Notes: a model not told the origin generated them from the letters alone. A stretch of DNA of 64,000 nt from Candidatus Omnitrophota bacterium (GCA_016930485.1 JAFGGP010000050.1:15370-79369), one strand, 5' to 3'; positions 3,800 through 63,636 are shown, numbered from the stretch's first letter. Program-made: numbers and translations.

Positions 3800-5077
3800 A
3801 TGAACACCACCAAGAAAACGATTGTGTGTGTGGCAATAGGCGTTGGTATCTGCGCTGTTCTTGCCGCTGGTGCCTCTATGATGTTTACCACAAGAGGTTC
3901 CCTTGCTTTGACGAAAGCCATGCTGACACACTATGTAAGGTCCGGCGACATTGATATTGCAAAGGCAAGCGGCACTCTTTCCAAAGAATTGCTATTCAAC
4001 GATATCGTCATTGCCGATCCCCAGGGTTTTCCCCGGGGTACAACCCTGACTATTCAAAAGATAAATATCCGGTTGGACATATTCTATCCGAGTGAAAGCA
4101 CTCTGGCGCTCCAGAACGGCACCCTGAGACTGCCAAACTCAGACCCAGTTCTTTTCTACGGAGGCTATAGAGATAACCGGTTAGATATTACCTTTTATGC
4201 GAAGGAACTTGATATCCGTGAACTATTAGACCTCTTTTCCGAAGCCTCGGATCTGAACGAGGTCTCCGGTGTTCTGAGAGATTGCGATGGCACTGTAAGA
4301 GGCACATTGTCAGCACCGGAGCTGAGTGGGTCTTTTTATATAACGGCGCTTTCCAGAAGGGCGTTTTCCGTGAAGGCCTGTCCGGGGACGTATACCCTAA
4401 GGCTCACGGATTTGGGGAAGGAAATCAGGATGTACGGCACGGTCCTGCTAGAAGGTGGCACTATTGCCGTTAATAAAACCCGTATTGCACTTGGACCAAG
4501 CACCGTTTCTTTTGAAGGCGACCCAACAACACCGACCTTTCATGTACAAGGTAGTTCGATTGTCGAAACTACAACCATCAATATTACCCTTAAAGGCGCC
4601 CTTCAAAACCCTGAGTTACTGTTGAGTTCGAATCCTCCATTGCCGCAGGTACAACTTATGCTGATGCTTGCTACCGGGAAGAGCTGGAAAGGGGCTCAGG
4701 TGGGATTAGAGCAGGGCAGGATTACCAGTGAGGTAGCCAGTGACTTTGTTGATTATTTTATTTTTGGAGGGACCGGAAATGCCCTGGTAAAGCGTTGTGG
4801 ATTGAACGCAGTTTCGCTCAGGCACGACGGCACCACGACCGGTGCAGGGGTTACGAAGTCTGTGTCAGATAGACTGACCGTTGGTTACGACGTGGAGCAG
4901 ACCCGGCAAAAAACCGGCGACGCCTCGACTACTCAAAAGATAGGTGCGTCCTATAAGGTGACCGATGAGGTCTCGGTCGATGCAGAAAAAGAGGTTAAGG
5001 TTGATGATAAGACCGGGCAGACCGAACAGCAAGAAGAAGAAGATAAGGTCTTCCTAAAATATAAAAGACAGTTTTAA
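3800..5077 (+). CDS. Membrane-anchored TamB/AsmA-like (DUF490-like) protein
   Basis: 425 aa with an N-terminal TM helix, a beta-rich repetitive body and a C-terminal region resembling the TamB DUF490 end (SDRLTVGYDVEQ). Terminal residue is Phe. Confidence 0.45.
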   Translation: MNTTKKTIVCVAIGVGICAVLAAGASMMFTTRGSLALTKAMLTHYVRSGDIDIAKASGTLSKELLFNDIVIADPQGFPRGTTLTIQKINIRLDIFYPSESTLALQNGTLRLPNSDPVLFYGGYRDNRLDITFYAKELDIRELLDLFSEASDLNEVSGVLRDCDGTVRGTLSAPELSGSFYITALSRRAFSVKACPGTYTLRLTDLGKEIRMYGTVLLEGGTIAVNKTRIALGPSTVSFEGDPTTPTFHVQGSSIVETTTINITLKGALQNPELLLSSNPPLPQVQLMLMLATGKSWKGAQVGLEQGRITSEVASDFVDYFIFGGTGNALVKRCGLNAVSLRHDGTTTGAGVTKSVSDRLTVGYDVEQTRQKTGDASTTQKIGASYKVTDEVSVDAEKEVKVDDKTGQTEQQEEEDKVFLKYKRQF

Positions 5078-5970: not shown

Positions 5971-6180
5971 ATGGGAAGAATGAAAAACTGCAAATGTCCC
6001 GCGTGCCATTCACCGATTGAATGTGACAATTTCGAGGCAGTGGGCGAAATGGTATTCTGTTCTTTTTGTGATACTACACTACAGGTGACCAGCATTAAGC
6101 CGCCGAGGGTCAAGGTGTTAAAAGGGCTGAAAGGCCCGGCGGGCAACAAAGAAGAGGATGAACAAACGGATGTTTTTTAA
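5971..6180 (+). CDS. LysW-like zinc-ribbon protein (paralog 2)
   Basis: 69 aa with CPAC...CSFC ribbon and LQVTSIKPP core. Shorter tail KEEDEQTDVF. SD is AGGAGTAGGAG. Confidence 0.55.
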   Translation: MGRMKNCKCPACHSPIECDNFEAVGEMVFCSFCDTTLQVTSIKPPRVKVLKGLKGPAGNKEEDEQTDVF

Positions 6181-40334: not shown

Positions 40335-40397
40335 AGCCTTCAGCCAGCAGCCTTCAGCCATCAGCCGCTGAAAGCTGACAGCTGACAGCTGAAAGCT
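40335..40397. repeat. Heptamer-unit hairpin ((NNTCAGC)x4 / (GCTGANN)x4)
   Basis: AGCCTTCAGCCAGCAGCCTTCAGCCATCAGC-C-GCTGAAAGCTGACAGCTGACAGCTGAAAGCT. The 5-nt cores pair and the 2-nt variable positions mostly do not. Confidence 0.85.
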
Positions 40398-40402
40398 AAA
40401 AA

Positions 40403-41269
40403 ATGAAAGAACTTATCGTAAAAACATGTGTACTTCGTGCCGCAGGGACGAACTGCGATAGAGAGACAGCCTATGCATTTGAACGCGCAGGCGCCCGATC
40501 GGAGATTATCCATATCAACCAGTTTGTCTCTCGCACCCGCACGCTGAACGAATTTCATATTCTGGCCATCCCGGGCGGATTTACCTATGGCGATGATGTT
40601 AGCTCAGGTAAGATACTGGCAAACGAACTGAAATATAATTTGTTTGATGATATCCGCCGCTTTGTAGAACAGGGGCGATTGATTATCGGTATCTGCAACG
40701 GCTTTCAAGTGCTGGTTAAATCGGGTCTCCTGCCGGATGTTGCCGGCGATTGTGAGATTGAGGCCTCACTTGTTTTAAATAACTCGGGCAAGTTCGAGGA
40801 CTGTTGGGTATATCTTAAACCTCCCCGGCCCATTACACGCTGTGTGTGGACGAACGGCATAGAGAGGGTTATCTATCTGCCTGTTGCGCACGGCGAAGGA
40901 AAGTTTGTGGTTAAGGGTAACACTGTACTTTCTTTACTCAAGGAGAATAACCAGATTGTATTTCGTTACTGTACCCCGGACGGCTCGCCAGGTCCGTTCC
41001 CGGTAAACCCCAACGGCTCGCTCGATGATATCGCCGGCATCTGTGACCCTACCGGCAGGATTTTAGGAATGATGCCACATCCGGAGAGGCACATTACTTT
41101 CTTTCATCATCCGCACTGGCACAGATGTTCCGAGAGAAAACAGGGTGACGGATTGAATATATTTGAGAACGGCGTTCAATATATTCAGAAGACGATACTT
41201 ACACAAGAATCAGGAGACATATCACAAGTCGCAGATAATGCAAATATCAAAAATCAAATGTCAAAATGA
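40403..41269 (+). CDS. purQ: FGAM synthase glutamine amidotransferase subunit
   Basis: GICNGFQ (Cys nucleophile) and MMPHPER motifs. The last ~15 codons run into the downstream repeat. Confidence 0.95.
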   Translation: MKELIVKTCVLRAAGTNCDRETAYAFERAGARSEIIHINQFVSRTRTLNEFHILAIPGGFTYGDDVSSGKILANELKYNLFDDIRRFVEQGRLIIGICNGFQVLVKSGLLPDVAGDCEIEASLVLNNSGKFEDCWVYLKPPRPITRCVWTNGIERVIYLPVAHGEGKFVVKGNTVLSLLKENNQIVFRYCTPDGSPGPFPVNPNGSLDDIAGICDPTGRILGMMPHPERHITFFHHPHWHRCSERKQGDGLNIFENGVQYIQKTILTQESGDISQVADNANIKNQMSK

Positions 41270-42932: not shown

Positions 42933-43915
42933 CCTATAAAAAAAGCGGTGTTGACGTAAAAAAGGCCGATCTATTTGTTCAGGGCATCCGATCGGTGATC
43001 GCCACAACTCCTCAGAGGGGCGTTCTGAGGGATGTAGGGTGTTTTGCGTCTCTCTACGATGCCGGACTTTCCCGCTACCGAAACCCCATTCTGGTCTCCT
43101 CCACGGACGGTGTCGGGACAAAAATAAAGATTGCCCGGCTGCTTAATTGTTACTCGACGATAGGCATCGACCTGGTGGCTATGAATGTGAATGATATTAT
43201 TACTGTCGGCGCACGACCCCTGTTTTTTCTGGACTATATTGCGACCGGCAGGGTGCGGCCTCGCCAGTTAACCGATATCGTCAGAGGTATCGCAGCGGGT
43301 TGCATTGAGGCGGACTGTGCCCTTTTGGGCGGGGAGACCGCCGAGATGCCCGGTATCTACCAGAAGGGAGACTTTGACCTGGCCGGTTTTTGTGTCGGGG
43401 TATGCGAAAAAAGACAGCTGCTTTCCCCGGAAAAGATGCGCCCCGGTGACCGGATTATCGGCGTTGCATCGAGCGGTGTTCACTCAAACGGCTTTTCGCT
43501 GGTGCGCAGGATATTCAGCGAGGGCTCACTCCGGAAGGATAAACACCTGGCAAAAGAACTGCTGACGCCGACACGCATTTATGTAAAATGTGTAGAGCGG
43601 GTTATGGCGCAATGCAGACTGCATGCTGTTATTCATGTTACCGGAGGCGGTTTCCACAGGAGGATTGTCACGTTCTTAAACCGTGTGCTTGGAAAAAGGG
43701 GGCGTGCCGAGGTGGATGTCAAGGCATGGCCGGCTCCCGAGATTTTTCGGGTCATCCAGAAGAAGGGTGGCATATCGACCCGTGAGATGTTTCATACGTT
43801 TAATATGGGGGTCGGGCTGGTTCTTGTCTGTGCCAGACAGGATACAGATAGGGCCCTGAACGCAGTGCAACAAAGCGGTTTTGATGCGTGGGTAATCGGG
43901 CGGATAACTAAATAG
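42917..43915 (+). CDS. purM: AIR synthetase
   Basis: LTYKKSGVD, DGVGTK, DMLAxNxND-like MNVNDIIT and GGETAEMPG motifs. 16-nt overlap with purF. Confidence 0.95.
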   Translation: MAVKLTYKKSGVDVKKADLFVQGIRSVIATTPQRGVLRDVGCFASLYDAGLSRYRNPILVSSTDGVGTKIKIARLLNCYSTIGIDLVAMNVNDIITVGARPLFFLDYIATGRVRPRQLTDIVRGIAAGCIEADCALLGGETAEMPGIYQKGDFDLAGFCVGVCEKRQLLSPEKMRPGDRIIGVASSGVHSNGFSLVRRIFSEGSLRKDKHLAKELLTPTRIYVKCVERVMAQCRLHAVIHVTGGGFHRRIVTFLNRVLGKRGRAEVDVKAWPAPEIFRVIQKKGGISTREMFHTFNMGVGLVLVCARQDTDRALNAVQQSGFDAWVIGRITK

Positions 43916-43980
43916 ACACAGGACACATGACACAAGACACAGGTAAAATACTTGTGACCTGTGACATGTGACCGGTGACT
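43916..43980. repeat. Heptamer-unit hairpin ((GACACAN)x4, TAAAATAC loop, (TGTGACN)x4)
   Basis: Begins at the base after the purM stop codon. Same family as 37381 and the intragenic array at 58274. Confidence 0.85.
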
Positions 43981-43993
43981 CGAAAAGATTATT

Positions 43994-45286
43994 ATGAAGA
44001 AAAAAGTACTGGTTATCGGTTCAGGCGGCAGGGAACACGCCCTGGTATGGAAGCTCTCGCAGAGTCATCGCGTCGGAAAGATATATGCAGTTCCGGGAAA
44101 CGGCGGGATGAGAGAGATGGCAGAGACTATCCCTATAGATGTCGGCGATCTTGAACAAATAGCTGTTTTTGCCAAGGAAAAAGGGATCGACTTAACTATT
44201 GTTGGCCCTGAGGCACCGCTTGTCAGTGGTATAGTTAACCTATTCAATGAAAATGGGTTACGAATATTCGGTCCGACAAAAGAGGCAGCACAATTAGAGG
44301 GGAGCAAGGTTTTTACCAAGCGGCTTCTTAAGGAGGCGGGTATCCCAACGGCCGACTTTCAGGTATGTGAGAATAGCAACGAGGCAAAGGCCTTTATTAA
44401 GGACAAAGGGGCCCCGTTAGTCATTAAGGCGGACGGTCTGTGTGCCGGCAAGGGTGTTATCGTAGCCCTCTCAGAGGAGGAGGCGCTTGCCGCGGTCGAT
44501 TCTATTATGATCGACCGGAAATTTGGCGCCAGCGGTTCGCAGATTTTGATTGAAGAACTTCTCACGGGGGAAGAGGCCTCTATTATTGCCTTTGTCGACG
44601 GCAGTGATTTTTTGCTGCTTCCCTCCTCCCAGGATCATAAGAGGGTCGGCGATAATGATACAGGGGCGAATACCGGCGGCATGGGGGCGTATTCACCGGC
44701 CCCGGTTATCACCGGGGAGCTTTTGAAAGAGATAGAAGAGACGGTAATCGCCCCGACTATCGCGGCGATGGGCAGGAAAGGCATGCTGTTTAACGGGGTG
44801 CTCTATTGCGGACTTATGATTACCCGAAGAGGTCCTCAGGTGTTGGAGTATAATGTGCGGTTCGGAGACCCGGAGGTTCAGGCGATACTGCCGCGTCTTA
44901 CAGGAGATCTTATGGAGTATCTTGAGGCAACCGTTGACGGTACCCTGGCGCAGCAAACCGTTACCGTTGACCAAAGAGATTGTGTGTGCGTCGTTCTCGC
45001 CTCGGGCGGTTATCCGGAGAATTATGAAAAGGGAAAGGTAATTACCGGGCTTGAGAAAATAAGGAACCGGGAGGATGTTATTGTATTTCATGCGGGCACC
45101 AGACAGGGGACGGACACCCTTCTGACAAACGGGGGCAGGGTGTTAAATGTGGTCGCCCTTGGTGACGGGATAGAGCAGGCTATCGATACCGCCTACGCCG
45201 CTATCAGGGATATCCGTTTTGAGGGGATGTATTACAGGAGCGATATAGGATTCCGGGCATTACAAAGAAATAATCTAAAACCCTAA
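43994..45286 (+). CDS. purD: GAR synthetase
   Basis: MKKKVLVIGSGGREHAL, GANTGGMGAY and EYNVRFGDPE motifs. Confidence 0.95.
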   Translation: MKKKVLVIGSGGREHALVWKLSQSHRVGKIYAVPGNGGMREMAETIPIDVGDLEQIAVFAKEKGIDLTIVGPEAPLVSGIVNLFNENGLRIFGPTKEAAQLEGSKVFTKRLLKEAGIPTADFQVCENSNEAKAFIKDKGAPLVIKADGLCAGKGVIVALSEEEALAAVDSIMIDRKFGASGSQILIEELLTGEEASIIAFVDGSDFLLLPSSQDHKRVGDNDTGANTGGMGAYSPAPVITGELLKEIEETVIAPTIAAMGRKGMLFNGVLYCGLMITRRGPQVLEYNVRFGDPEVQAILPRLTGDLMEYLEATVDGTLAQQTVTVDQRDCVCVVLASGGYPENYEKGKVITGLEKIRNREDVIVFHAGTRQGTDTLLTNGGRVLNVVALGDGIEQAIDTAYAAIRDIRFEGMYYRSDIGFRALQRNNLKP

Positions 45287-45436
45287 ACTCTAAATCCGAA
45301 ATCCTAAATAAATCCAAAATTCAAATGACCAAAACCCAAAACAAAAAATGATAAGGAAGTTTTGAACATTTTGATTTTGAGTTTTGAGCTTATTTAGAAT
45401 TTAGAGTTTTGGATTTTAGGATTTATTTAATAAGAA
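45265..45436. repeat. Large heptamer-unit hairpin (CTAAA(T/C)N / AAATCCN arm versus NGATTT / TTTAG arm)
   Basis: Arms of about 70 nt flank the loop AAAAAATGATAAGGAA. The left arm begins within the last purD codons. Confidence 0.8.
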
Positions 45437-47148: not shown

Positions 47149-47512
47149 CCGCCAGTTCACGAGTTATCGAGTTGAACATGGTTAGCGAGTTAGCCAGTTC
47201 GCGGGTTAGCGGGTTCACCAGTTAACGAGTTGGAAATAGTGAACGAGTTTGCCGGTTCTACCCTTCGACTTTGCTCAGGGCAGGCGAGTTCACGAGTTCT
47301 TCTTTAGCGTGCAGCCCTTTGATAAACTCAGGACAAGCGATTAGCGGCTAGCGTATAGAAAAAGAAAAAATCTAACCACTAAACGCTATCCGCTAGACGC
47401 TATAACGAACCCGAAGAACCCGTTGAACTCGAAGAACCAATGAACTATTTTTAAACCCGAGCAACTCGAAGAACCCGCGAACCCGGGCAACCCAAAGAAC
47501 TTTGAGGAGCAG
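47149..47512. repeat. Composite repeat region (about 360 nt) with CGAGTTN/GAACTCG heptamer arms and inner TAGCG/CGCTA hairpin
   Basis: Left arm is CAGTTCACGAGTTATCGAGTTGAAC... and right arm is GAACCCGAAGAACCCGTTGAACTCGAAGAACC... . Also contains CCTTCGACTTTGCTCAGGGCAGGC modules shared with 41270. Confidence 0.8.
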
Positions 47513-47515
47513 GCA

Positions 47516-47974
47516 ATGAAAATCGCTATCGGATCAGATCACAGAGGCTACCCGTTAAAACAGGAATTGATCGCTTTTCTGAAGGAAAAAGGCCATGAGG
47601 TAACAGATCTCGGAACCGATAGCACCGACAGTTGCGATTATCCACTCTACAGTTTCGCAGTGGCGCGCGCAGTGAGCAATGGGGCGGCCGAGTGCGGCAT
47701 TGTCGTGTGCAATACAGGGATTGGTGTCTCTATGGTTGCGAACAAGATTAGAGGGGTGCGTGCGGCACTGTGTTATGAGACAGCCGCCGCCTCTACCGCC
47801 AGGCGGCACAACAATGCCAACGTTCTGGCGCTGGGGGCGGGCTACCTTACCGCTCGGACGGCCAAGGAGATAACACAGGCGTTTTTAACCGGGCAATTTG
47901 AAGGCGGAAGGCACAAGAGACGCGTTGATCAGATAAGCGATATAGAAAATCAGACAGAAGACAATAGACTATAG
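47516..47974 (+). CDS. rpiB: Ribose-5-phosphate isomerase B
   Basis: MKIAIGSDHRGY, VCNTGIGVSMVANK and RRHNNANVLALG motifs. Confidence 0.93.
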   Translation: MKIAIGSDHRGYPLKQELIAFLKEKGHEVTDLGTDSTDSCDYPLYSFAVARAVSNGAAECGIVVCNTGIGVSMVANKIRGVRAALCYETAAASTARRHNNANVLALGAGYLTARTAKEITQAFLTGQFEGGRHKRRVDQISDIENQTEDNRL

Positions 47975-48300
47975 ACCAAGAGTTAAAAAGGGCACCAGTG
48001 ACTTTCAATGACAGATGACAAATTTCCCTGCTAAAGAGCTGGCAGGCAAATGACAAATGAATCGTTTAATGACAAATCCCAAAAAAAGAAATAAAAAGAT
48101 TTTTTGATTTATTTACCCGTCTCGCCACACTGTGTGGCGAGATATCGCCTTTGGCGGAAAAGCTGAGCGCTGAGAGCTAAAAGCTTAAAAAATACATAGT
48201 TCGCGAGTTCGCGGGTTGAAAGTAGTTAACAAAGCGAGTTCTTGGGTTTTTTGAACTCGAAGAACCCGTGAACCCAAATAACCCGAGGAACCAGTAAAAG
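47975..48300. repeat. Composite repeat region mixing AATGACA, GCTGAG and GAGTTC/GAACTC heptamer arrays plus a CTCGCCACA/TGTGGCGAG hairpin
   Basis: Read directly. Shares unit families with 40335, 47149 and 49588. Confidence 0.75.
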
Positions 48301-49587: not shown

Positions 49588-49815
49588 CCACTTCGCAATG
49601 GTAGATGTCAAATCTCAAATGACAAATGAATCACTCAAATCTAAATGACAAACACGTCTGTCATCCCGTGCTGCGACACGGGATGACAGAGAAATGTAGC
49701 CCCCATTTTGATGTGGGGGAAAATGGATTCCGGAGCAAATCCGGAATGACTCGGATTCTATTTGGATTTTAAAGATTCATTTGGGTTTTGACATTTTGAT
49801 TTTGGAATTTGAATA
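49588..49815. repeat. Multi-branch composite element: outer AAATGAC/GTCATTT-type arms enclosing three internal hairpins
   Basis: Internal hairpins are CTGTCATCCCGTG-CTGCGA-CACGGGATGACAG (13 bp perfect), CCCCCAT...ATGTGGGGG and ATTCCGG-AGCAAAT-CCGGAAT. The outer arms are TCAAATGACAAATGAATCACTCAAATCTAAATGACAAA and TTTGGATTTTAAAGATTCATTTGGGTTTTGACATTTTGATTTTGG. Confidence 0.8.
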
Positions 49816-55341: not shown

Positions 55342-55674
55342 ATGAAAGACTCTACCGTATTTGATAAAAATCCCGATATCGTAAGCCGGACTATAGAAGA
55401 TGAAACTATCCTTCTGCCGGTTTACAGAACCTCGGAGGAAATTAACTGTCTTTATACCCTGAATGAATCGGCGGCGGCTGTCTGGGATTTAATCGACGGC
55501 AGGCGGTCATTGGGGGAGATTAAAGAGGCAATGCTCAGGCAATTTGAAGCGACGCCCGAAGAGATAGATAAGGAGATGGGAATTCTCTTGAAAGATTTAA
55601 CCGAGATCAAGGCCATTACCCCGGTCAAAGAAACAAAGGGCGCAGGGCGCGCGGGGCGGGCCACTCATACATGA
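55342..55674 (+). CDS. PqqD family protein (RiPP recognition element-like)
   Basis: 110 aa with the typical PqqD pattern DIVSRTIEDETILL...LNESAAAVWDLIDGRRSLGEI...EIDKEMGILLKDL. SD GGGAGG lies before the ATG at 55342. Confidence 0.8.
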   Translation: MKDSTVFDKNPDIVSRTIEDETILLPVYRTSEEINCLYTLNESAAAVWDLIDGRRSLGEIKEAMLRQFEATPEEIDKEMGILLKDLTEIKAITPVKETKGAGRAGRATHT

Positions 55675-56855
55675 AACACATAGAAACAGCCCATTTCTAC
55701 AGCAGGCTATACGATAAAGAAGAGCAGCGCCCCTATTCCGGGCAGCTCGAACTCACCTACCGCTGCGATCTCGACTGCATTCATTGTTACTGCAAGGGCT
55801 CGGAAGAGGTACCAAGTCACAGGTCACAGGTCGCAGATCACAGGTCGAAATTAACAGAGGAAACTTTTCCGAAAAAAAAAGAACTAACTACCATTCAATG
55901 GAAAAGGATTTTAGACGAAGTCCAAAAAGAAGGATGCCTCTGCCTTACCCTGACCGGCGGAGAGCCCTTGATCAGGGATGACTTTCTTGAGATCTACGGT
56001 TACGCGAAAAGGCTCGGTTTTATCATTACCATTTTTACCAACGGCCAGTCATTGACGAATGAGATTATTGACTATCTGGAAAAATACCCGCCCTTTTCGA
56101 TAGAAATTACCCTTAACGGCATTACAAAAAATACCTACGAATCGATTACCCGGGTTGACGGTTCCTTTGAAAGGGTGATGGAAAATATCCGTGCCCTCCG
56201 CGCGAGGAGATTGCCTCTTATTATAAAGGCGAACTGCCTGAAACAAAACAGACACGAGATCGCAAAAATAAAACAATGGGCAGAAGATTTACTGGGAAAA
56301 TCAGCTAAAATGACTGAGATGTGTGACGTGCGACCTGAGACATGTGACATTAGAAAGTATAATTTTAAATACGACCCCATGATTTTCCCCCGACTCAATG
56401 GAGACAGGGCCCCGTGCGAGCACCGACTTTCTTTTGAGGAGTTGACACAGCTCCGCCGGCAGGACCCGGATATCTGGGGAGAGTATCGGGAAGGATGCGA
56501 GGCCGGGCTGCCGGATTTGACACGGGAGGCGCGGTTTCTCTACCGTTGTAACGCCTGGATGAAACATTTTTTTATTAATCCTTACGGCAGGCTGAAGTTC
56601 TGTCAGTTTAGTGAGAAATTCAGCGTTGATTTAAGGGAGACGTCGTTTCACGAGGGCTTTTACCGGGCTTTTCCGAAACTCCTAACCCCAACATTTACGA
56701 CAGATTCGCGCTGCCAGCATTGCTCGCTTCGCCCCCTATGCTACCATTGCCCGGCGCGCGCATATCTCGAGACAGGAAACGAGGAGGCGCCGGTACCGTA
56801 TTACTGTGAATTGGCAAAACATATAGCAGATCAAATAAAATTGCTAAATTGTTAA
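55671..56855 (+). CDS. Radical SAM/SPASM-type peptide maturase (paralog 1)
   Basis: CDLDCIHCY (CX3CX2C), LTGGEPL and a C-terminal Cys cluster CQHCSLRPLCYHCPARAY. ATGA overlap with pqqD. Carries two heptamer-array insertions. Confidence 0.85.
   Translation: MKHIETAHFYSRLYDKEEQRPYSGQLELTYRCDLDCIHCYCKGSEEVPSHRSQVADHRSKLTEETFPKKKELTTIQWKRILDEVQKEGCLCLTLTGGEPLIRDDFLEIYGYAKRLGFIITIFTNGQSLTNEIIDYLEKYPPFSIEITLNGITKNTYESITRVDGSFERVMENIRALRARRLPLIIKANCLKQNRHEIAKIKQWAEDLLGKSAKMTEMCDVRPETCDIRKYNFKYDPMIFPRLNGDRAPCEHRLSFEELTQLRRQDPDIWGEYREGCEAGLPDLTREARFLYRCNAWMKHFFINPYGRLKFCQFSEKFSVDLRETSFHEGFYRAFPKLLTPTFTTDSRCQHCSLRPLCYHCPARAYLETGNEEAPVPYYCELAKHIADQIKLLNC
55816..55850. repeat. Intragenic heptamer array (GTCACAG-like x5), in frame in radical SAM 1
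   Basis: GTCACAG GTCACAG GTCGCAG ATCACAG GTCGAAA encodes SHRSQVADHRS. The segment is absent from the paralog at 57418. Confidence 0.85.
56324..56358. repeat. Intragenic heptamer array (CTGTGAC-like x5), inverted copy of 55816..55850
   Basis: CTGAGAT GTGTGAC GTGCGAC CTGAGAC ATGTGAC encodes part of TEMCDVRPETCD. Its reverse complement matches 26 of 35 positions of the first array. Confidence 0.8.
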
Positions 56856-56965
56856 ACTGATGCGTTGTTACATTGATAAACCGCTAAACTGTTTTATTGT
56901 TAAATTGTTTCATTGCTTAATTGTTGCGCTGATGCATTGTTAAATTGCTACAGCATTGAGAGAGT
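56856..56965. repeat. Heptamer-unit array (AATTGTT-like), left arm flanking the four-helix-bundle ORF
   Basis: TGTTAAACTG...TTGTTAAATTGTTTCATTGCTTAATTGTTGCGCTGATGCATTGTTAAATTGC. Confidence 0.75.
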
Positions 56966-56968
56966 AAG

Positions 56969-57344
56969 ATGAAAAAATATTTAGAGTTAAACGATATAGA
57001 TGCTTACCGAATTGCTTTGGATTTGTCTAATTATATTTGGAACATTGTTATCAAATGGGATTATTTTGCCAAAGATACCGTCGGCAAACAGTGGGCCAAA
57101 GCTATTGATTCTATCTCGGCTAATATTGCCGAAGGTTTTGACAGGTATTTTAAAAAAGATAAAGTTACTTTTTATCGTTACAGTTATGGTTCTATTAATG
57201 AATCTTTAGATTGGCTTGAAAAGGCAAATAGACGAACCTTGTTAAAAAAACAATGAATATCAACATATACTGAAGGAATTAAAAAAATTGCCAAAAGAAA
57301 TTCATGCATTAATTAATTTTACTAATGAACGCCTCAAAAAGTAA
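56969..57344 (+). pseudogene. Four-helix-bundle protein (23S rRNA intervening-sequence protein family), apparent +1 frameshift in an A7 run
   Basis: The N-terminal 95 aa (LDLSNYIWNIV...ISANIAEGFDRY...FYRYSYGSINESLDWLEKA) match the family. Frame 0 stops at 57254-57256. The expected C-terminus (NEYQHILKELKKLPKEIHALINFTNERLKK) continues in the +1 frame at 57252..57344. The A7 run is at 57244-57250. Confidence 0.6.
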
Positions 57345-57417
57345 CAGTTTAACAATTTGTCAGTGAAGCAGTTAGGAATTAAACGATACAACAATGGAGC
57401 AGGGCAGCAATTGAACA
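57345..57417. repeat. Heptamer-unit array (AACAATT-like), right arm complementary to 56856..56965
   Basis: CAGTTTAACAATTTGTCAG...CAGCAATTGAACAATGG, ending at the radical SAM 2 start codon. Confidence 0.7.
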
Positions 57418-58614
57418 ATGGAATATAAAGATTACGACCAATTTTGGCAAAAGATACATCAGTCCGCACGGGAAAAAGGTGTGCCGCTGCGTGTAATGTT
57501 TGAACTGACCTACCGGTGCAATTTTAACTGTGCTCACTGTTATATACCGACTGATTTTCGAACAAAGGGTGAGCTGACTACGCAAGAGGTGTTTTCCGTG
57601 CTTGATCAGCTCAAGGCGGCCGGGTGCTTTTATCTGGGGTTTACCGGCGGTGAGCCGTTCATGCGCGCTGACTTCATGGATATCCTCTGGTATGCTAAGC
57701 GCGCCGGGTTTCAGGTGATTATCTATACCAACGGATCGTTGATCGATGAGAAGAAAGCCGCGGCATTGGCGAAGTTCAGCCCGAATAAAGTGGACATTAC
57801 CATACCCGCCTTGAGCAAAGAGGCCTTTGAGCGCATTACCGGGGTAACAGGCTATTGGGACAGGGTATTTCATGCAATTGACCTGCTGCATAGCCTCGGT
57901 GTTCCTCTGGGGTTTAAGACATGCCTTTTGAGGGAAAACGAGTTGGAGATTGCTCAGATACAGGAATTTGCCGCCTCTTTAGGGTCGCTGTATCGTCTGG
58001 ATACAATGCTTTCCCCGCGGCTGGATGGGGATCCAGAACCGTACTGTTATAGGGGTACATTACATTTAGCCAAAAGTCATGGAATGCCAGCTATAAGTAA
58101 TAGAATGACAAATTTCAAATGCCAAATGACAAATGAATTCCAAATGTCAAATGACAAATTAAAAGACAAAAATATTTTATTTACATGTGGCGCGGGAAGG
58201 ACGCAGGCCGCTGTCACGCCGCTTGGTGAACTGAAGCTATGTGTGATAATCGACCGGCCGAAAATTACAATAGACACAGGACACATGACACAGGACACAA
58301 GAGAAAACTTACAAATAACACGTAACACGTCGCACGTCACACGTAATAAAAATGAGGGGGTGTCGCTGAGTGAAGCATGGGAGAAGTTAAAAGAGACAAC
58401 AGAGAATATAGAAGCGGGTAAAAAGCATCAGTGCCCGGAATGCGAGCTTGCACCGTATTGCAAGTGGTGTCCGGCGCAGAGCTGGCTGGCACATGGGACG
58501 TTTACAGGATGCGTTCCGGAAAGCCGTGCCTGGGCACAGATGGTGCAAGAGTCGCTTTGCAGTGACAGAGAAAAAATGCTCAAGGGGTATCAGTCTAAGG
58601 CAGGTATCATATAA
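57418..58614 (+). CDS. Radical SAM/SPASM-type peptide maturase (paralog 2)
   Basis: CNFNCAHCY, FTGGEPF and a C-terminal CPECELAPYCKWCPAQSW cluster. Carries two heptamer-array insertions. Confidence 0.85.
   Translation: MEYKDYDQFWQKIHQSAREKGVPLRVMFELTYRCNFNCAHCYIPTDFRTKGELTTQEVFSVLDQLKAAGCFYLGFTGGEPFMRADFMDILWYAKRAGFQVIIYTNGSLIDEKKAAALAKFSPNKVDITIPALSKEAFERITGVTGYWDRVFHAIDLLHSLGVPLGFKTCLLRENELEIAQIQEFAASLGSLYRLDTMLSPRLDGDPEPYCYRGTLHLAKSHGMPAISNRMTNFKCQMTNEFQMSNDKLKDKNILFTCGAGRTQAAVTPLGELKLCVIIDRPKITIDTGHMTQDTRENLQITRNTSHVTRNKNEGVSLSEAWEKLKETTENIEAGKKHQCPECELAPYCKWCPAQSWLAHGTFTGCVPESRAWAQMVQESLCSDREKMLKGYQSKAGII
58104..58170. repeat. Intragenic heptamer array (AATGACA-like), in frame in radical SAM 2
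   Basis: AATGACA AATTTCA AATGCCA AATGACA AATGAAT... encodes NRMTNFKCQMTNEFQMSNDKLKD. Same unit as the intergenic arrays at 47990 and 49600. Confidence 0.85.
58274..58345. repeat. Intragenic heptamer arrays ((GACACAN)x4 then (NACACGT)x4), in frame in radical SAM 2
   Basis: Encodes DTGHMTQDTRENLQITRNTSHVTRN. The first half nearly duplicates the left arm at 43916, and the second resembles the left arm at 63489. Confidence 0.85.
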
Positions 58615-59656: not shown

Positions 59657-59807
59657 CACATTATGGCTCATTTCGCCTCGGCCAAAACGCTCGGTAAATC
59701 TCTTCGATGTTTACCCTCGCTGGCTCGAGGCATACATTCGCCCCCGCTGATTCGTTTTGAGAAGTAAAACGAATCAAAACGACGGGGGCTCATTTAAAGG
59801 AGGGTAT

Positions 59808-60020
59808 ATGTCTCAACAGAAAGAATTTAAACCTGTTATAACTCGCGTGGAGCTTAGCCCCGAACAGGCGGTGCTGCAGTGCAGTTGTTACACTAGTGGC
59901 AGGGTATGGAATAAAGTGAAATTGCCCGGTACGGACGCTTATGCCTGTTCCGACTATAACGTTAAGCAGCTCACCTCCGGGTGGGTACCCTATGATGTTG
60001 GGGTTTCAGGTTCTTCGTAG
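59808..60020 (+). CDS. Candidate RiPP precursor peptide 1 (70 aa)
   Basis: MSQQKEFKPVITRVELSPEQAVLQCSCYTSGRVWNKVKLPGTDAYACSDYNVKQLTSGWVPYDVGVSGSS. SD AAAGGAGGG lies before the ATG at 59808. Its N-terminal 33 residues are about 70% identical to the ORF at 61576. Confidence 0.6.
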   Translation: MSQQKEFKPVITRVELSPEQAVLQCSCYTSGRVWNKVKLPGTDAYACSDYNVKQLTSGWVPYDVGVSGSS

Positions 60021-63488: not shown

Positions 63489-63636
63489 GTCACACGTAGC
63501 ACGTTGCAGGTAACACGTCGCACGTAACGCAGGAAAGGCACAATCAGTTTCCGCGGGACGTGATACTTGTTATGTTTACTTGATGCGGATAATATAGAAC
63601 CTGATACCTGCTACGTGATACTTGATAAAATGAAAC
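63489..63636. repeat. Heptamer-unit imperfect hairpin (CACGTAN arm / NTACGTG-GATAC arm)
   Basis: TCACACGTAGCACGTTGCAGGTAACACGTCGCACGTAACGCAGG ... GACGTGATACTTG...CTACGTGATACTTGAT. Confidence 0.65.

Follow-up and report, generated by a model that had tools for sequence, protein, structure and literature searches.

The window analyzed here is a 64,000-nucleotide stretch of DNA (GCA_016930485.1 JAFGGP010000050.1:15370-79369) from a Candidatus Omnitrophota bacterium, a Candidatus Omnitrophica metagenome-assembled genome (MAG), and contains an operon in which two radical SAM/SPASM genes are separated by a spacer of 562 nt. Within this spacer lies an open reading frame (ORF) for a four-helix-bundle protein, bracketed by two complementary arrays of short tandem repeats that extend to, or into, the genes on either side. 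The upstream gene (rSAM1; 55671-56855) codes for a ScmE/F-like protein of 394 aa with a PF04055 match (E = 2.9e-23) and weak ScmE/ScmF matches, and the downstream gene (rSAM2; 57418-58614) for a protein of 398 aa with a PF04055 match (E = 6.7e-27), so that both are radical SAM genes as had been supposed in an earlier reading of this DNA (the original prediction). All of the features of the spacer are described on the plus strand, as are the two genes. The left arm (56838-56949) consists of 14 tandem octamers with the consensus AAATTGTT, and is followed by a short stretch, ACAGCATTGAGAGAGTAAG (56950-56968), in which a purine-rich segment as read from the sequence is weak. The ORF as it is now read (56969-57256; 288 nt, 95 aa) encodes helices 1 to 3 and ends at a premature stop; a run of seven A's (57244-57250) contains one more A than the A6 that would keep the frame, and the C-terminal part with helix 4, KNNEYQHILKELKKLPKEIHALINFTNERLKK, continues in the +1 frame (57246-57344) up to a stop codon at 57342-57344. 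The right arm (57343-57420) consists of approximately ten octamers of the AACAATTT type and is complementary to the left arm, as seen both in inverted-repeat pairs and in the predicted RNA fold.

The original prediction described the arms as inverted heptamer arrays, and although the inverted arrays are clearly present their period is eight rather than seven. Tandem Repeats Finder reports a period of 8 for the left arm, a repeat search gives 8-nt spacing, and the lag-8 autocorrelation is 0.59 for the left side (56838-56965) and 0.56 for the right (57343-57420), compared with 0.28 ± 0.04-0.05 in shuffled sequences; the lag-7 values of both arms (0.28-0.31) are at background. A tandem 7-nt unit of the kind found in heptamer arrays is thus absent from both arms, whereas most of the other arrays in the window have a period of 7. 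The bounds also differ from those first proposed: the arms are inverted and complementary as described, but the left one begins at 56838 and not at 56856, and the right one runs to 57420. The left arm therefore opens within rSAM1, and the last six codons of this gene (18 nt, 56838-56855), which give it the tail KLLNC and its stop codon, are encoded by two-plus units of the array. At the other end, the 3' end of the right arm is the ATG of rSAM2, with no Shine-Dalgarno sequence between them, and the arm also overlaps the stop codon of the restored ORF.

Complementarity of the two arms is well above background, with a local-alignment score of 28 compared to a maximum of 19 in approximately 1000 positional controls from the same window. 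The best alignment spans 80 columns and contains 55 Watson-Crick pairs, 11 G:U pairs, 4 A:C pairs, and 9 other mismatches; variant octamers occur in mirrored order in the left and right arms, and the arms are therefore true inverted copies of each other. When the region 56830-57430 is folded as RNA the arms are predicted to pair nearly end to end (minimum free energy -136.6 kcal/mol, z = -5.05), forming helices of 13, 7, 3, 10, 8, and 12 bp with 1-2-nt bulges between them. Terminal inverted repeats thus form a stable predicted stem around the ORF, as in the intervening sequences (IVSs) of 23S rRNA genes. The GC content of the cassette is 29-33%, in comparison with approximately 50% in both flanks and 48% in the whole window. 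We found no intrinsic terminator at the cassette, and promoter-like sites are not significantly in excess.

The PF05635 family (23S_rRNA_IVP) is named after ORFs in 23S rRNA intervening sequences. The 95-aa ORF matches it with E = 3.6e-17 and 63 bits (cutoff 33.8), confirming the four-helix-bundle assignment, and this is the sole profile match of the encoded protein, with no match to a Y1/HUH transposase. That the C-terminus continues in the +1 frame after the A7 run is also borne out: the +1-frame fragment matches the family hidden Markov model (HMM) with E = 7.5e-5, and removal of one A yields a 124-aa protein that extends over the PF05635 profile as far as position 105 of 106, reaches 78.4 bits with TIGR02436 (cutoff 24), and aligns end to end with uninterrupted homologues, including their C-termini. 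The motif [RK]xxxSxxxNxxE described for PF05635-type proteins (PMC3936711) is intact as KAIDSISANIAE, and N52 and E55 are invariant in the family alignment. All four helices are not encoded in a single frame, helix 4 being out of frame after the A7 run, and judged by these profile matches and alignments the ORF is a disrupted copy of a PF05635/TIGR02436 family member. A search of the PDB with the single sequence gave no match, but a profile built from 25 family members matches 2GSC (E = 4.5e-12) and 2RLD (E = 1.8e-8). 2GSC is Xcc0516, a pentamer of four-helix bundles. Relatives of this gene are Xcc0516 and Avd, the accessory protein of diversity-generating retroelements (DGRs). When the window was translated in six frames and searched with the family HMM, neither a second four-helix-bundle gene nor a remnant of one in the loops of the other hairpins was identified, and PADLOC defence models gave no match. 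A link of the family to HEPN proteins was also considered, but the literature searched gave it no support.

To what extent the spacer is an addition to the operon can be judged from orthologous junctions. Protein searches and contig look-ups yielded eight further loci with an rSAM2 orthologue (51-55% identical), L088 and L089 being nearly the same as each other; when metagenomes were scanned with the rSAM2 protein, the relatives returned were of approximately 30% identity only and are of no use for comparing junctions. Upstream of rSAM2 in L090, L092, and L093 the distance between the two genes is -4 (an overlap), +1, and +4 nt, respectively, a tight and uninserted arrangement in which the genes are coupled and a purine-rich stretch lies inside the end of the upstream gene. 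The orthologues that lack the insertion also lack the array-encoded tail KLLNC-stop. In L091 this position is taken by AAATTGYT units, which form a solo direct array of 40 nt. Because three of these four operons (L090-L093) have tight junctions, the 562-nt spacer of the window is an insertion.

The inserted junctions vary in what they contain. L088 and L089 have a 418-nt spacer with a four-helix-bundle gene 80% identical to that of the window, flanked by five left and three right units, and the upstream gene has the same array-encoded KLLNC-stop tail. In L086 the rSAM2 junction is occupied by an 84-nt ORF-less hairpin of AAATTGTT-type units (four on the left, a TGTGG loop, and five on the right up to the ATG); the gene upstream of rSAM2 is not an rSAM1 orthologue, the cluster holds three radical SAM genes, and a four-helix-bundle gene 81% identical to that of the window is found at another junction, after a PqqD-like gene. 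In L087 the spacer is 419 nt and contains a four-helix-bundle gene that is 30% identical, with heptamer arms of GTAGCAC and CCTGATA types. In all of the inserted cases the right arm adjoins the downstream ATG without a Shine-Dalgarno sequence. Gene ends of the type LNC-stop recur, with KLLNC-stop at 56838-56855 of the window and at the end of rSAM1 in L088 (4565-4582), QLLNC-stop at the end of rSAM2 in L088 (~6095-6113), and GLNC-stop at the end of rSAM2 in L092 (~4045-4059); the stop codon is clearly supplied by AAATTGTT-type arrays in both KLLNC-stop cases and in QLLNC-stop.

A scan of one genome per species identified 80 loci with homologous ORFs (39-80% identity) in Omnitrophota, Planctomycetota, Ignavibacteriota, Bacteroidota, Desulfobacterota, Calditrichota, KSB1, Cyanobacteria, and two lineages of the Candidate Phyla Radiation (CPR). 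For each we scored the complementarity of the 150 nt upstream of the ORF with the 150 nt downstream by local alignment (+1/-1); RNAduplex energies were discarded for this purpose because they are confounded by GC content, such that AT-rich arms score below random GC-rich coding sequence. In 49 of 75 loci the score is higher than in 99% of 1500 positional controls (median 18 versus 9; Mann-Whitney p = 5e-35), and in 49 of 74 it is higher than in 95% of the controls taken from the flanks of other genes in those loci (p = 8e-20). By eye, these flanks consist of direct tandem arrays 5' of the ORF and their reverse complement 3' of it. By this measure the gene-in-repeat-hairpin layout is general for the family, being found in approximately two thirds of the 75 loci and in many phyla. 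Homologous ORFs without inverted arms had been named as an outcome that would count against the original prediction; with arms flanking the ORF in these 49 of the 75, the check favors it. None of 20 sampled homologous loci (0/20) lies in an rRNA gene, and an Rfam search of the window and 20 loci returned a single tRNA as the sole match.

The neighbors of the ORF are also strongly biased in orientation. Both are co-directional with it in 67 of 74 loci and both antisense in none (0/74), with median gaps in these 74 loci of 77 nt on the upstream side and 63.5 nt on the downstream side. Arrays of the cognate unit are approximately 15-fold enriched elsewhere within ±3 kb of the ORF (37, versus 2.4 with shuffled units), and clear ORF-less cognate hairpins are found at nearby junctions in L086 (5925-6001) and L088 (3345-3437 and 7270-7345). 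Some hosts carry more than one copy: L019 has two within 3 kb (~3001 and ~5770), and L018 and L061 are two diverged copies on separate contigs of one Ignavibacteriaceae MAG. In a Moraniibacteria copy (L059, 3001-3361; 76% identical) the match is split in two and a stop comes early, so this may be another disrupted copy.

The repeat unit itself varies with the gene. Among loci whose protein is at least 54% identical to that of the window, which come from Omnitrophota, Ignavibacteriota, Bacteroidota, Planctomycetota, and CPR, upstream arrays of period 8 are present in 31 of 32, and almost all of these consist of AAATTGTT-like units or a near variant. In clades farther from the window protein the units are heptamers (GGTCATT or GGGTATT), octamers (ATTGGTTC), or 10- and 11-mers, of which AATTGTCATTC is one example, and an ATTG core is common to most of the unit types. 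In these comparisons the repeat unit tracks the clade of the ORF and not the phylum of the host.

We propose that the insertion is probably a member, outside of rRNA, of the ORF-bearing IVS type of selfish cassette, in which a TIGR02436/PF05635 gene is flanked by inverted arrays of its own 8-nt unit. The original prediction of an element like the ORF-bearing rRNA IVSs, placed in an mRNA operon, is supported by the protein family, the ORF-in-loop layout, the 5' heptamers of the Coxiella IVS, and the tight orthologous junctions. With the 23S rRNA IVSs of Leptospira and Coxiella burnetii (S23p) the cassette shares the protein family, a size of approximately 0.4-0.6 kb with the ORF in the loop of a terminal-inverted-repeat stem, a GC content below that of the host, sporadic distribution across lineages, and an ORF that is prone to decay. 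The Coxiella IVS carries its ORF in the loop of a 28-bp stem that RNase III cuts at its middle in vitro, with ends mapped by rapid amplification of cDNA ends (PMC4990558); its 5' region has short tandem repeats, as does the window cassette, in the form of three or four tandem heptamers GACAGAT whose copy number varies among strains, with the 5' site of RNase III cleavage falling at the first of them, and its ORF is decaying in some strains (PMC4990558). The differences are that the window cassette is not located in a helix of a 23S rRNA gene but in the spacer between two protein-coding genes of an operon – no tRNA or rRNA was detected in the window – and that its arms, at 112 and 78 nt, are far longer than the 28-bp stem and are built from octamers.

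The best-supported account is that the cassette would depend on host read-through transcription, and both the sense-orientation bias and the lack of promoter and terminator findings support its co-transcription. The cassette would be transcribed together with the radical SAM operon, and the arms in the transcript would pair into a bulged duplex exceeding 50 bp, a plausible RNase III substrate by analogy with the IVSs of Coxiella, Leptospira, and Salmonella. Cleavage would then cut the operon mRNA in two and release the loop with the ORF. Translating ribosomes could, instead or as well, open the stem by way of a closely spaced chain of stops and starts: the upstream stop lies inside the left arm and the ORF start just past it, and the restored ORF stop is in the first unit of the right arm with the downstream start just past that arm. 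The cassette or its ORF might spread among cognate repeat hairpins, either by recombination between homologous arms or through some activity of the protein, and transfer of the ORF between cognate hairpins by arm recombination would explain why it sits exactly at the apex. The window copy itself may have been recently inactivated and its arms expanded by slippage, with 14 and approximately 10 units in comparison with the 5 and 3 of its closest relative.

Several observations weigh against this interpretation. The window has only one AAATTGTT-type hairpin, giving no sign of spread inside the genome; the analysis turned up neither a transposase nor a target-site duplication nor any other machinery for mobility, and no Rfam family matches the cassette at either gathering or permissive thresholds. 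No close copies were identified among viral contigs and phage records, and plasmids gave one weak match. Synonymous divergence from the nearest relatives is substantial, and transfer, if any, is therefore not recent. Moreover, because G:U pairs are tolerated in the sense RNA and A:C mismatches (G:U on the other strand) only in antisense RNA, strong selection on the transcript should be visible in the arm mismatches, but in 51 elements these comprise 97 G:U and 97 A:C and thus carry no RNA-specific signal, in a test that is noisy and for which the register is ambiguous in repetitive arms; the 11 G:U versus 4 A:C in the window arms is not a significant difference. With no G:U excess, arm complementarity could be kept or generated at the DNA level.

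This last point leads to the strongest of the alternatives, which we regard as somewhat unlikely: a protein-centered system acting on DNA, comparable to REPIN/RAYT (hairpins of repetitive extragenic palindromic [REP] sequences and their REP-associated tyrosine transposases). The arrays would be the cognate binding sites of the protein, the array-flanked gene the master copy, and ORF-less hairpins its non-autonomous partners; the complementarity would arise from making or recognizing repeats on DNA, and RNase III cleavage would be incidental. There is a clear resemblance, in that a gene is bracketed by inverted short repeats of a clade-specific type and ORF-less hairpins occur in spacers, although inverted cognate repeats with dispersed ORF-less copies are seen among the relatives and the window has no second AAATTGTT-type hairpin. 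Co-variation of the unit with ORF clade across phyla and the ATTG core shared by most units, the ORF-less cognate hairpins at nearby junctions in L086 and L088, the local enrichment of cognate arrays, and the lack of a sense-strand G:U excess are all in its favor, and relatives of Avd bind nucleic acids. However, RAYTs are HUH/Y1 transposases and this protein is a four-helix bundle of approximately 124 aa; we know of no catalytic motif and no nuclease or transposase fold in PF05635. REPs are single palindromes of approximately 20-40 nt, unlike the tandem arrays of 7-11-nt units seen here. The sense-orientation bias (67 loci versus 0) points to a dependence on host transcription for which a symmetric DNA element would have no need, and in the window a single four-helix-bundle gene stands against seven or more types of hairpin.

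A second alternative concerns the frameshift, which could be bypassed by programmed recoding, with transcriptional slippage or ribosomal frameshifting at the A7 run yielding the full-length protein. Homopolymeric A runs are known slippage sites, and the 32 codons downstream of the run are still open and conserved. However, the relatives have no A-run at this site, reading AAAAGAAAAAG, GGGAAACAAC, and similar sequences in a single frame throughout, and the shift is therefore a lineage-specific one-base insertion and not a conserved recoding site. Seven A's are also short for efficient slippage by RNA polymerase, and the frame is restored by losing one nucleotide, which is not the usual -1 ribosomal slip, so we consider recoding improbable. 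Decay, sequencing error, and slippage had each been put forward for the frameshift; it looks like decay or error, and slippage is disfavored by the lack of conservation. An independent Logan assembly of SRR13394437 is 100% identical across 10,150 bp, including the A7 run, which counts against an assembler artefact, although the sequencing is not independent if both assemblies share reads. Most likely, the frameshift is an inactivating mutation, and a recent one because the downstream codons remain open and conserved; the truncated product, lacking helix 4, is probably non-functional.

A third alternative, that the gene is a vertically inherited functional component of the operon and the repeats are ordinary intergenic simple-sequence hairpins of the host, could account for the junction that the window shares with L088 and L089, including the KLLNC-stop tail. 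It also accords with the conservation of the protein: identities at codon positions 1, 2, and 3 between the window copy and those of L086 and L088 are 0.85-0.86, 0.89-0.90, and 0.51-0.57, and by this pattern the four-helix-bundle protein is under purifying selection among these relatives. Nonetheless, it is a very remote prospect, as the gene is absent from L090-L093 (with three tight coupled junctions and one 40-nt array), the 81%-identical copy of L086 is at a different operon junction, the L087 member at the same junction is only 30% identical and has other arms, close homologues that share the arms of the window are found in unrelated contexts in five phyla, and the GC content is 31% compared to 48% for the window. 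Least credible of all is that the ORF is an orphan Avd gene left by a DGR, since although PF05635 resembles Avd, a homologous four-helix-bundle fold family, and is the Pfam family most often found beside DGR reverse transcriptases (PMC10053308), neither the gene calls between 49.6 and 59.7 kb nor the ORFs examined between 52 and 61.5 kb include a reverse transcriptase or RVT domain, no scan of the wider window having been made, and the flanks are short tandem arrays rather than template and variable repeats. A type III toxin-antitoxin system was also considered and dropped, because 8 nt is too short a unit for one, an inverted array on the downstream side is at odds with it, and no toxin fold is present.

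Returning to the IVS-type cassette, its arrays are also akin to the short tandemly repeated repetitive (STRR) heptamer arrays of Cyanobacteria, Beggiatoaceae, and Bacteroidetes (such as TAACTGA; MacGregor 2015, PMC4679880), which are likewise short, intergenic, and patchily distributed across phyla, and which often end a few nucleotides from a start codon or overlap the end of the upstream ORF as the window arms do. A homologue in Nostoc sp. CHAB 5824 (L081) is flanked by STRR-like TGACTGA-type arrays. In the STRR literature the arrays are mostly direct, whereas here they are inverted pairs of an 8-nt unit around a four-helix-bundle gene. Heptamer repeats have been described as arrays that lie beside start codons, are patchy across phyla, and have 'no mechanism evident' behind their spread, and four-helix-bundle genes are not mentioned in that account (PMC4679880).

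These parallels raise a broader possibility, which we put forward tentatively and with the balance somewhat against it, that PF05635/TIGR02436 proteins are the cognate partners of STRR-like hairpins of 7-11-nt units in Cyanobacteria, Bacteroidota, Ignavibacteriota, Omnitrophota, CPR, and other phyla, with each protein clade traveling with its own unit. ORF-bearing hairpins would then be autonomous, ORF-less hairpins and solo arrays derived from them, and 23S IVSs the copies that landed in rRNA; members of the family are present in CPR rRNA insertions (PMC11270868). The family is large, is found in many phyla, and has no function known as yet, and the mechanism by which heptamer-type repeats spread horizontally has not been identified (PMC4679880). 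The locus and its 75 relatives join these two problems, since the gene and its inverted arrays appear as one unit, whose repeat type follows the gene phylogeny across phyla and which is inserted in the sense orientation at operon stop/start junctions. If true, the cognate-partner proposal would give a large 'hypothetical' family both a vehicle and a function, and heptamer-type repeats an origin. Cultured carriers are found in Mucilaginibacter (clade-1 cassettes in M. conchicola, M. aquariorum, and M. phenanthrenivorans; L024, L028, and L023), Pedobacter, and Nostoc. The window locus is a decayed copy of the insertion, and its interest lies in the general pattern that it exposes. We found no description of a gene in a tandem-repeat hairpin outside of rRNA, or of a match between repeat unit and protein clade, in the part of the literature that was searched.

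The layout also has consequences for annotation, as it explains long AT-rich spacers, array-encoded gene tails such as KLLNC-stop, and possibly links to CRISPR-like arrays. Genes of the family are wedged between cas genes, for example between cmr3 and cmr2 (PMC3936711), and 23S_rRNA_IVP genes have been reported in association with cas loci and CRISPR arrays (PMC3936711, PMC10910872); we speculate that flanking short tandem arrays might contribute to such calls.

The host operon is SynChlorMet-like and predicted to act in peptide modification, with PqqD/ScmD-like, ScmC-like, and two ScmE/F-like radical SAM/SPASM genes and a putative precursor. A small ORF with the conserved leader KF(K/R)PxITRVxLxPEQAVLxCxCY occurs in the window (59757-60020), twice in L086 (3465-3650 and 11735-11990), and in L088 (3130-3260). 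This ORF, for which NCBIfam has no matching model, probably encodes the precursor peptide of the SynChlorMet-like radical SAM cassette. Other junctions of the same operon contain GIY-YIG, DUF5674, and an RVT_1 fragment (L088/L089), a weak Y1_Tnp match (L090), AbiEii (L087 and L091), and PDDEXK_3 (L086), and the spacers of this operon appear to be a frequent landing place for small genes of the selfish or defence type.

The window contains at least seven further intergenic hairpins of inverted short tandem arrays, at 40335-40408, 43911-43982, 45277-45419, 47150-47500, 47949-48292, 49602-49804, and 63489-63628, each with its own unit (for example CAGCCNN/GCTGANA, GACACAG/TGTGACC, AAATCCT/ATTTAGA, and GTTAGCGA). 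Those that were compared with their flanking ORFs are located between co-directional genes, and several take up the entire spacer; none contains a four-helix-bundle ORF, and three have loops of 150-200 nt with nested hairpins inside. Periodic arrays of 7-8-nt units are confined to the 40-64 kb part of the window. In-frame tandem heptamer arrays are also present inside both radical SAM genes, at 55807-55847 and 56321-56350 in rSAM1 and at 58104-58164 and 58267-58348 in rSAM2. The second rSAM2 array encodes a segment (e.g. HMTQDTRENLQITRNTSHVTRNKNE) that is not in uninserted orthologues, with other relatives having different inserts at its loop position, and the remaining in-gene arrays coincide with regions that vary among orthologues; arrays therefore also invade permissive coding sites.

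A link between the cassette and these other hairpins had been suggested, and it is indirect, as they have other unit types and no ORF. The hairpin at 63489-63628 does provide a connection, as its GTAGCAC/GTAACAC and CCTGATA units, together with those of the in-ORF array at 58309-58348, match the arms of the four-helix-bundle gene in L087 (4540-5000). The same unit types match an ORF-less hairpin in L088 (7640-7700), and this distribution of units suggests a second cassette family in Omnitrophota, with filled and empty forms.

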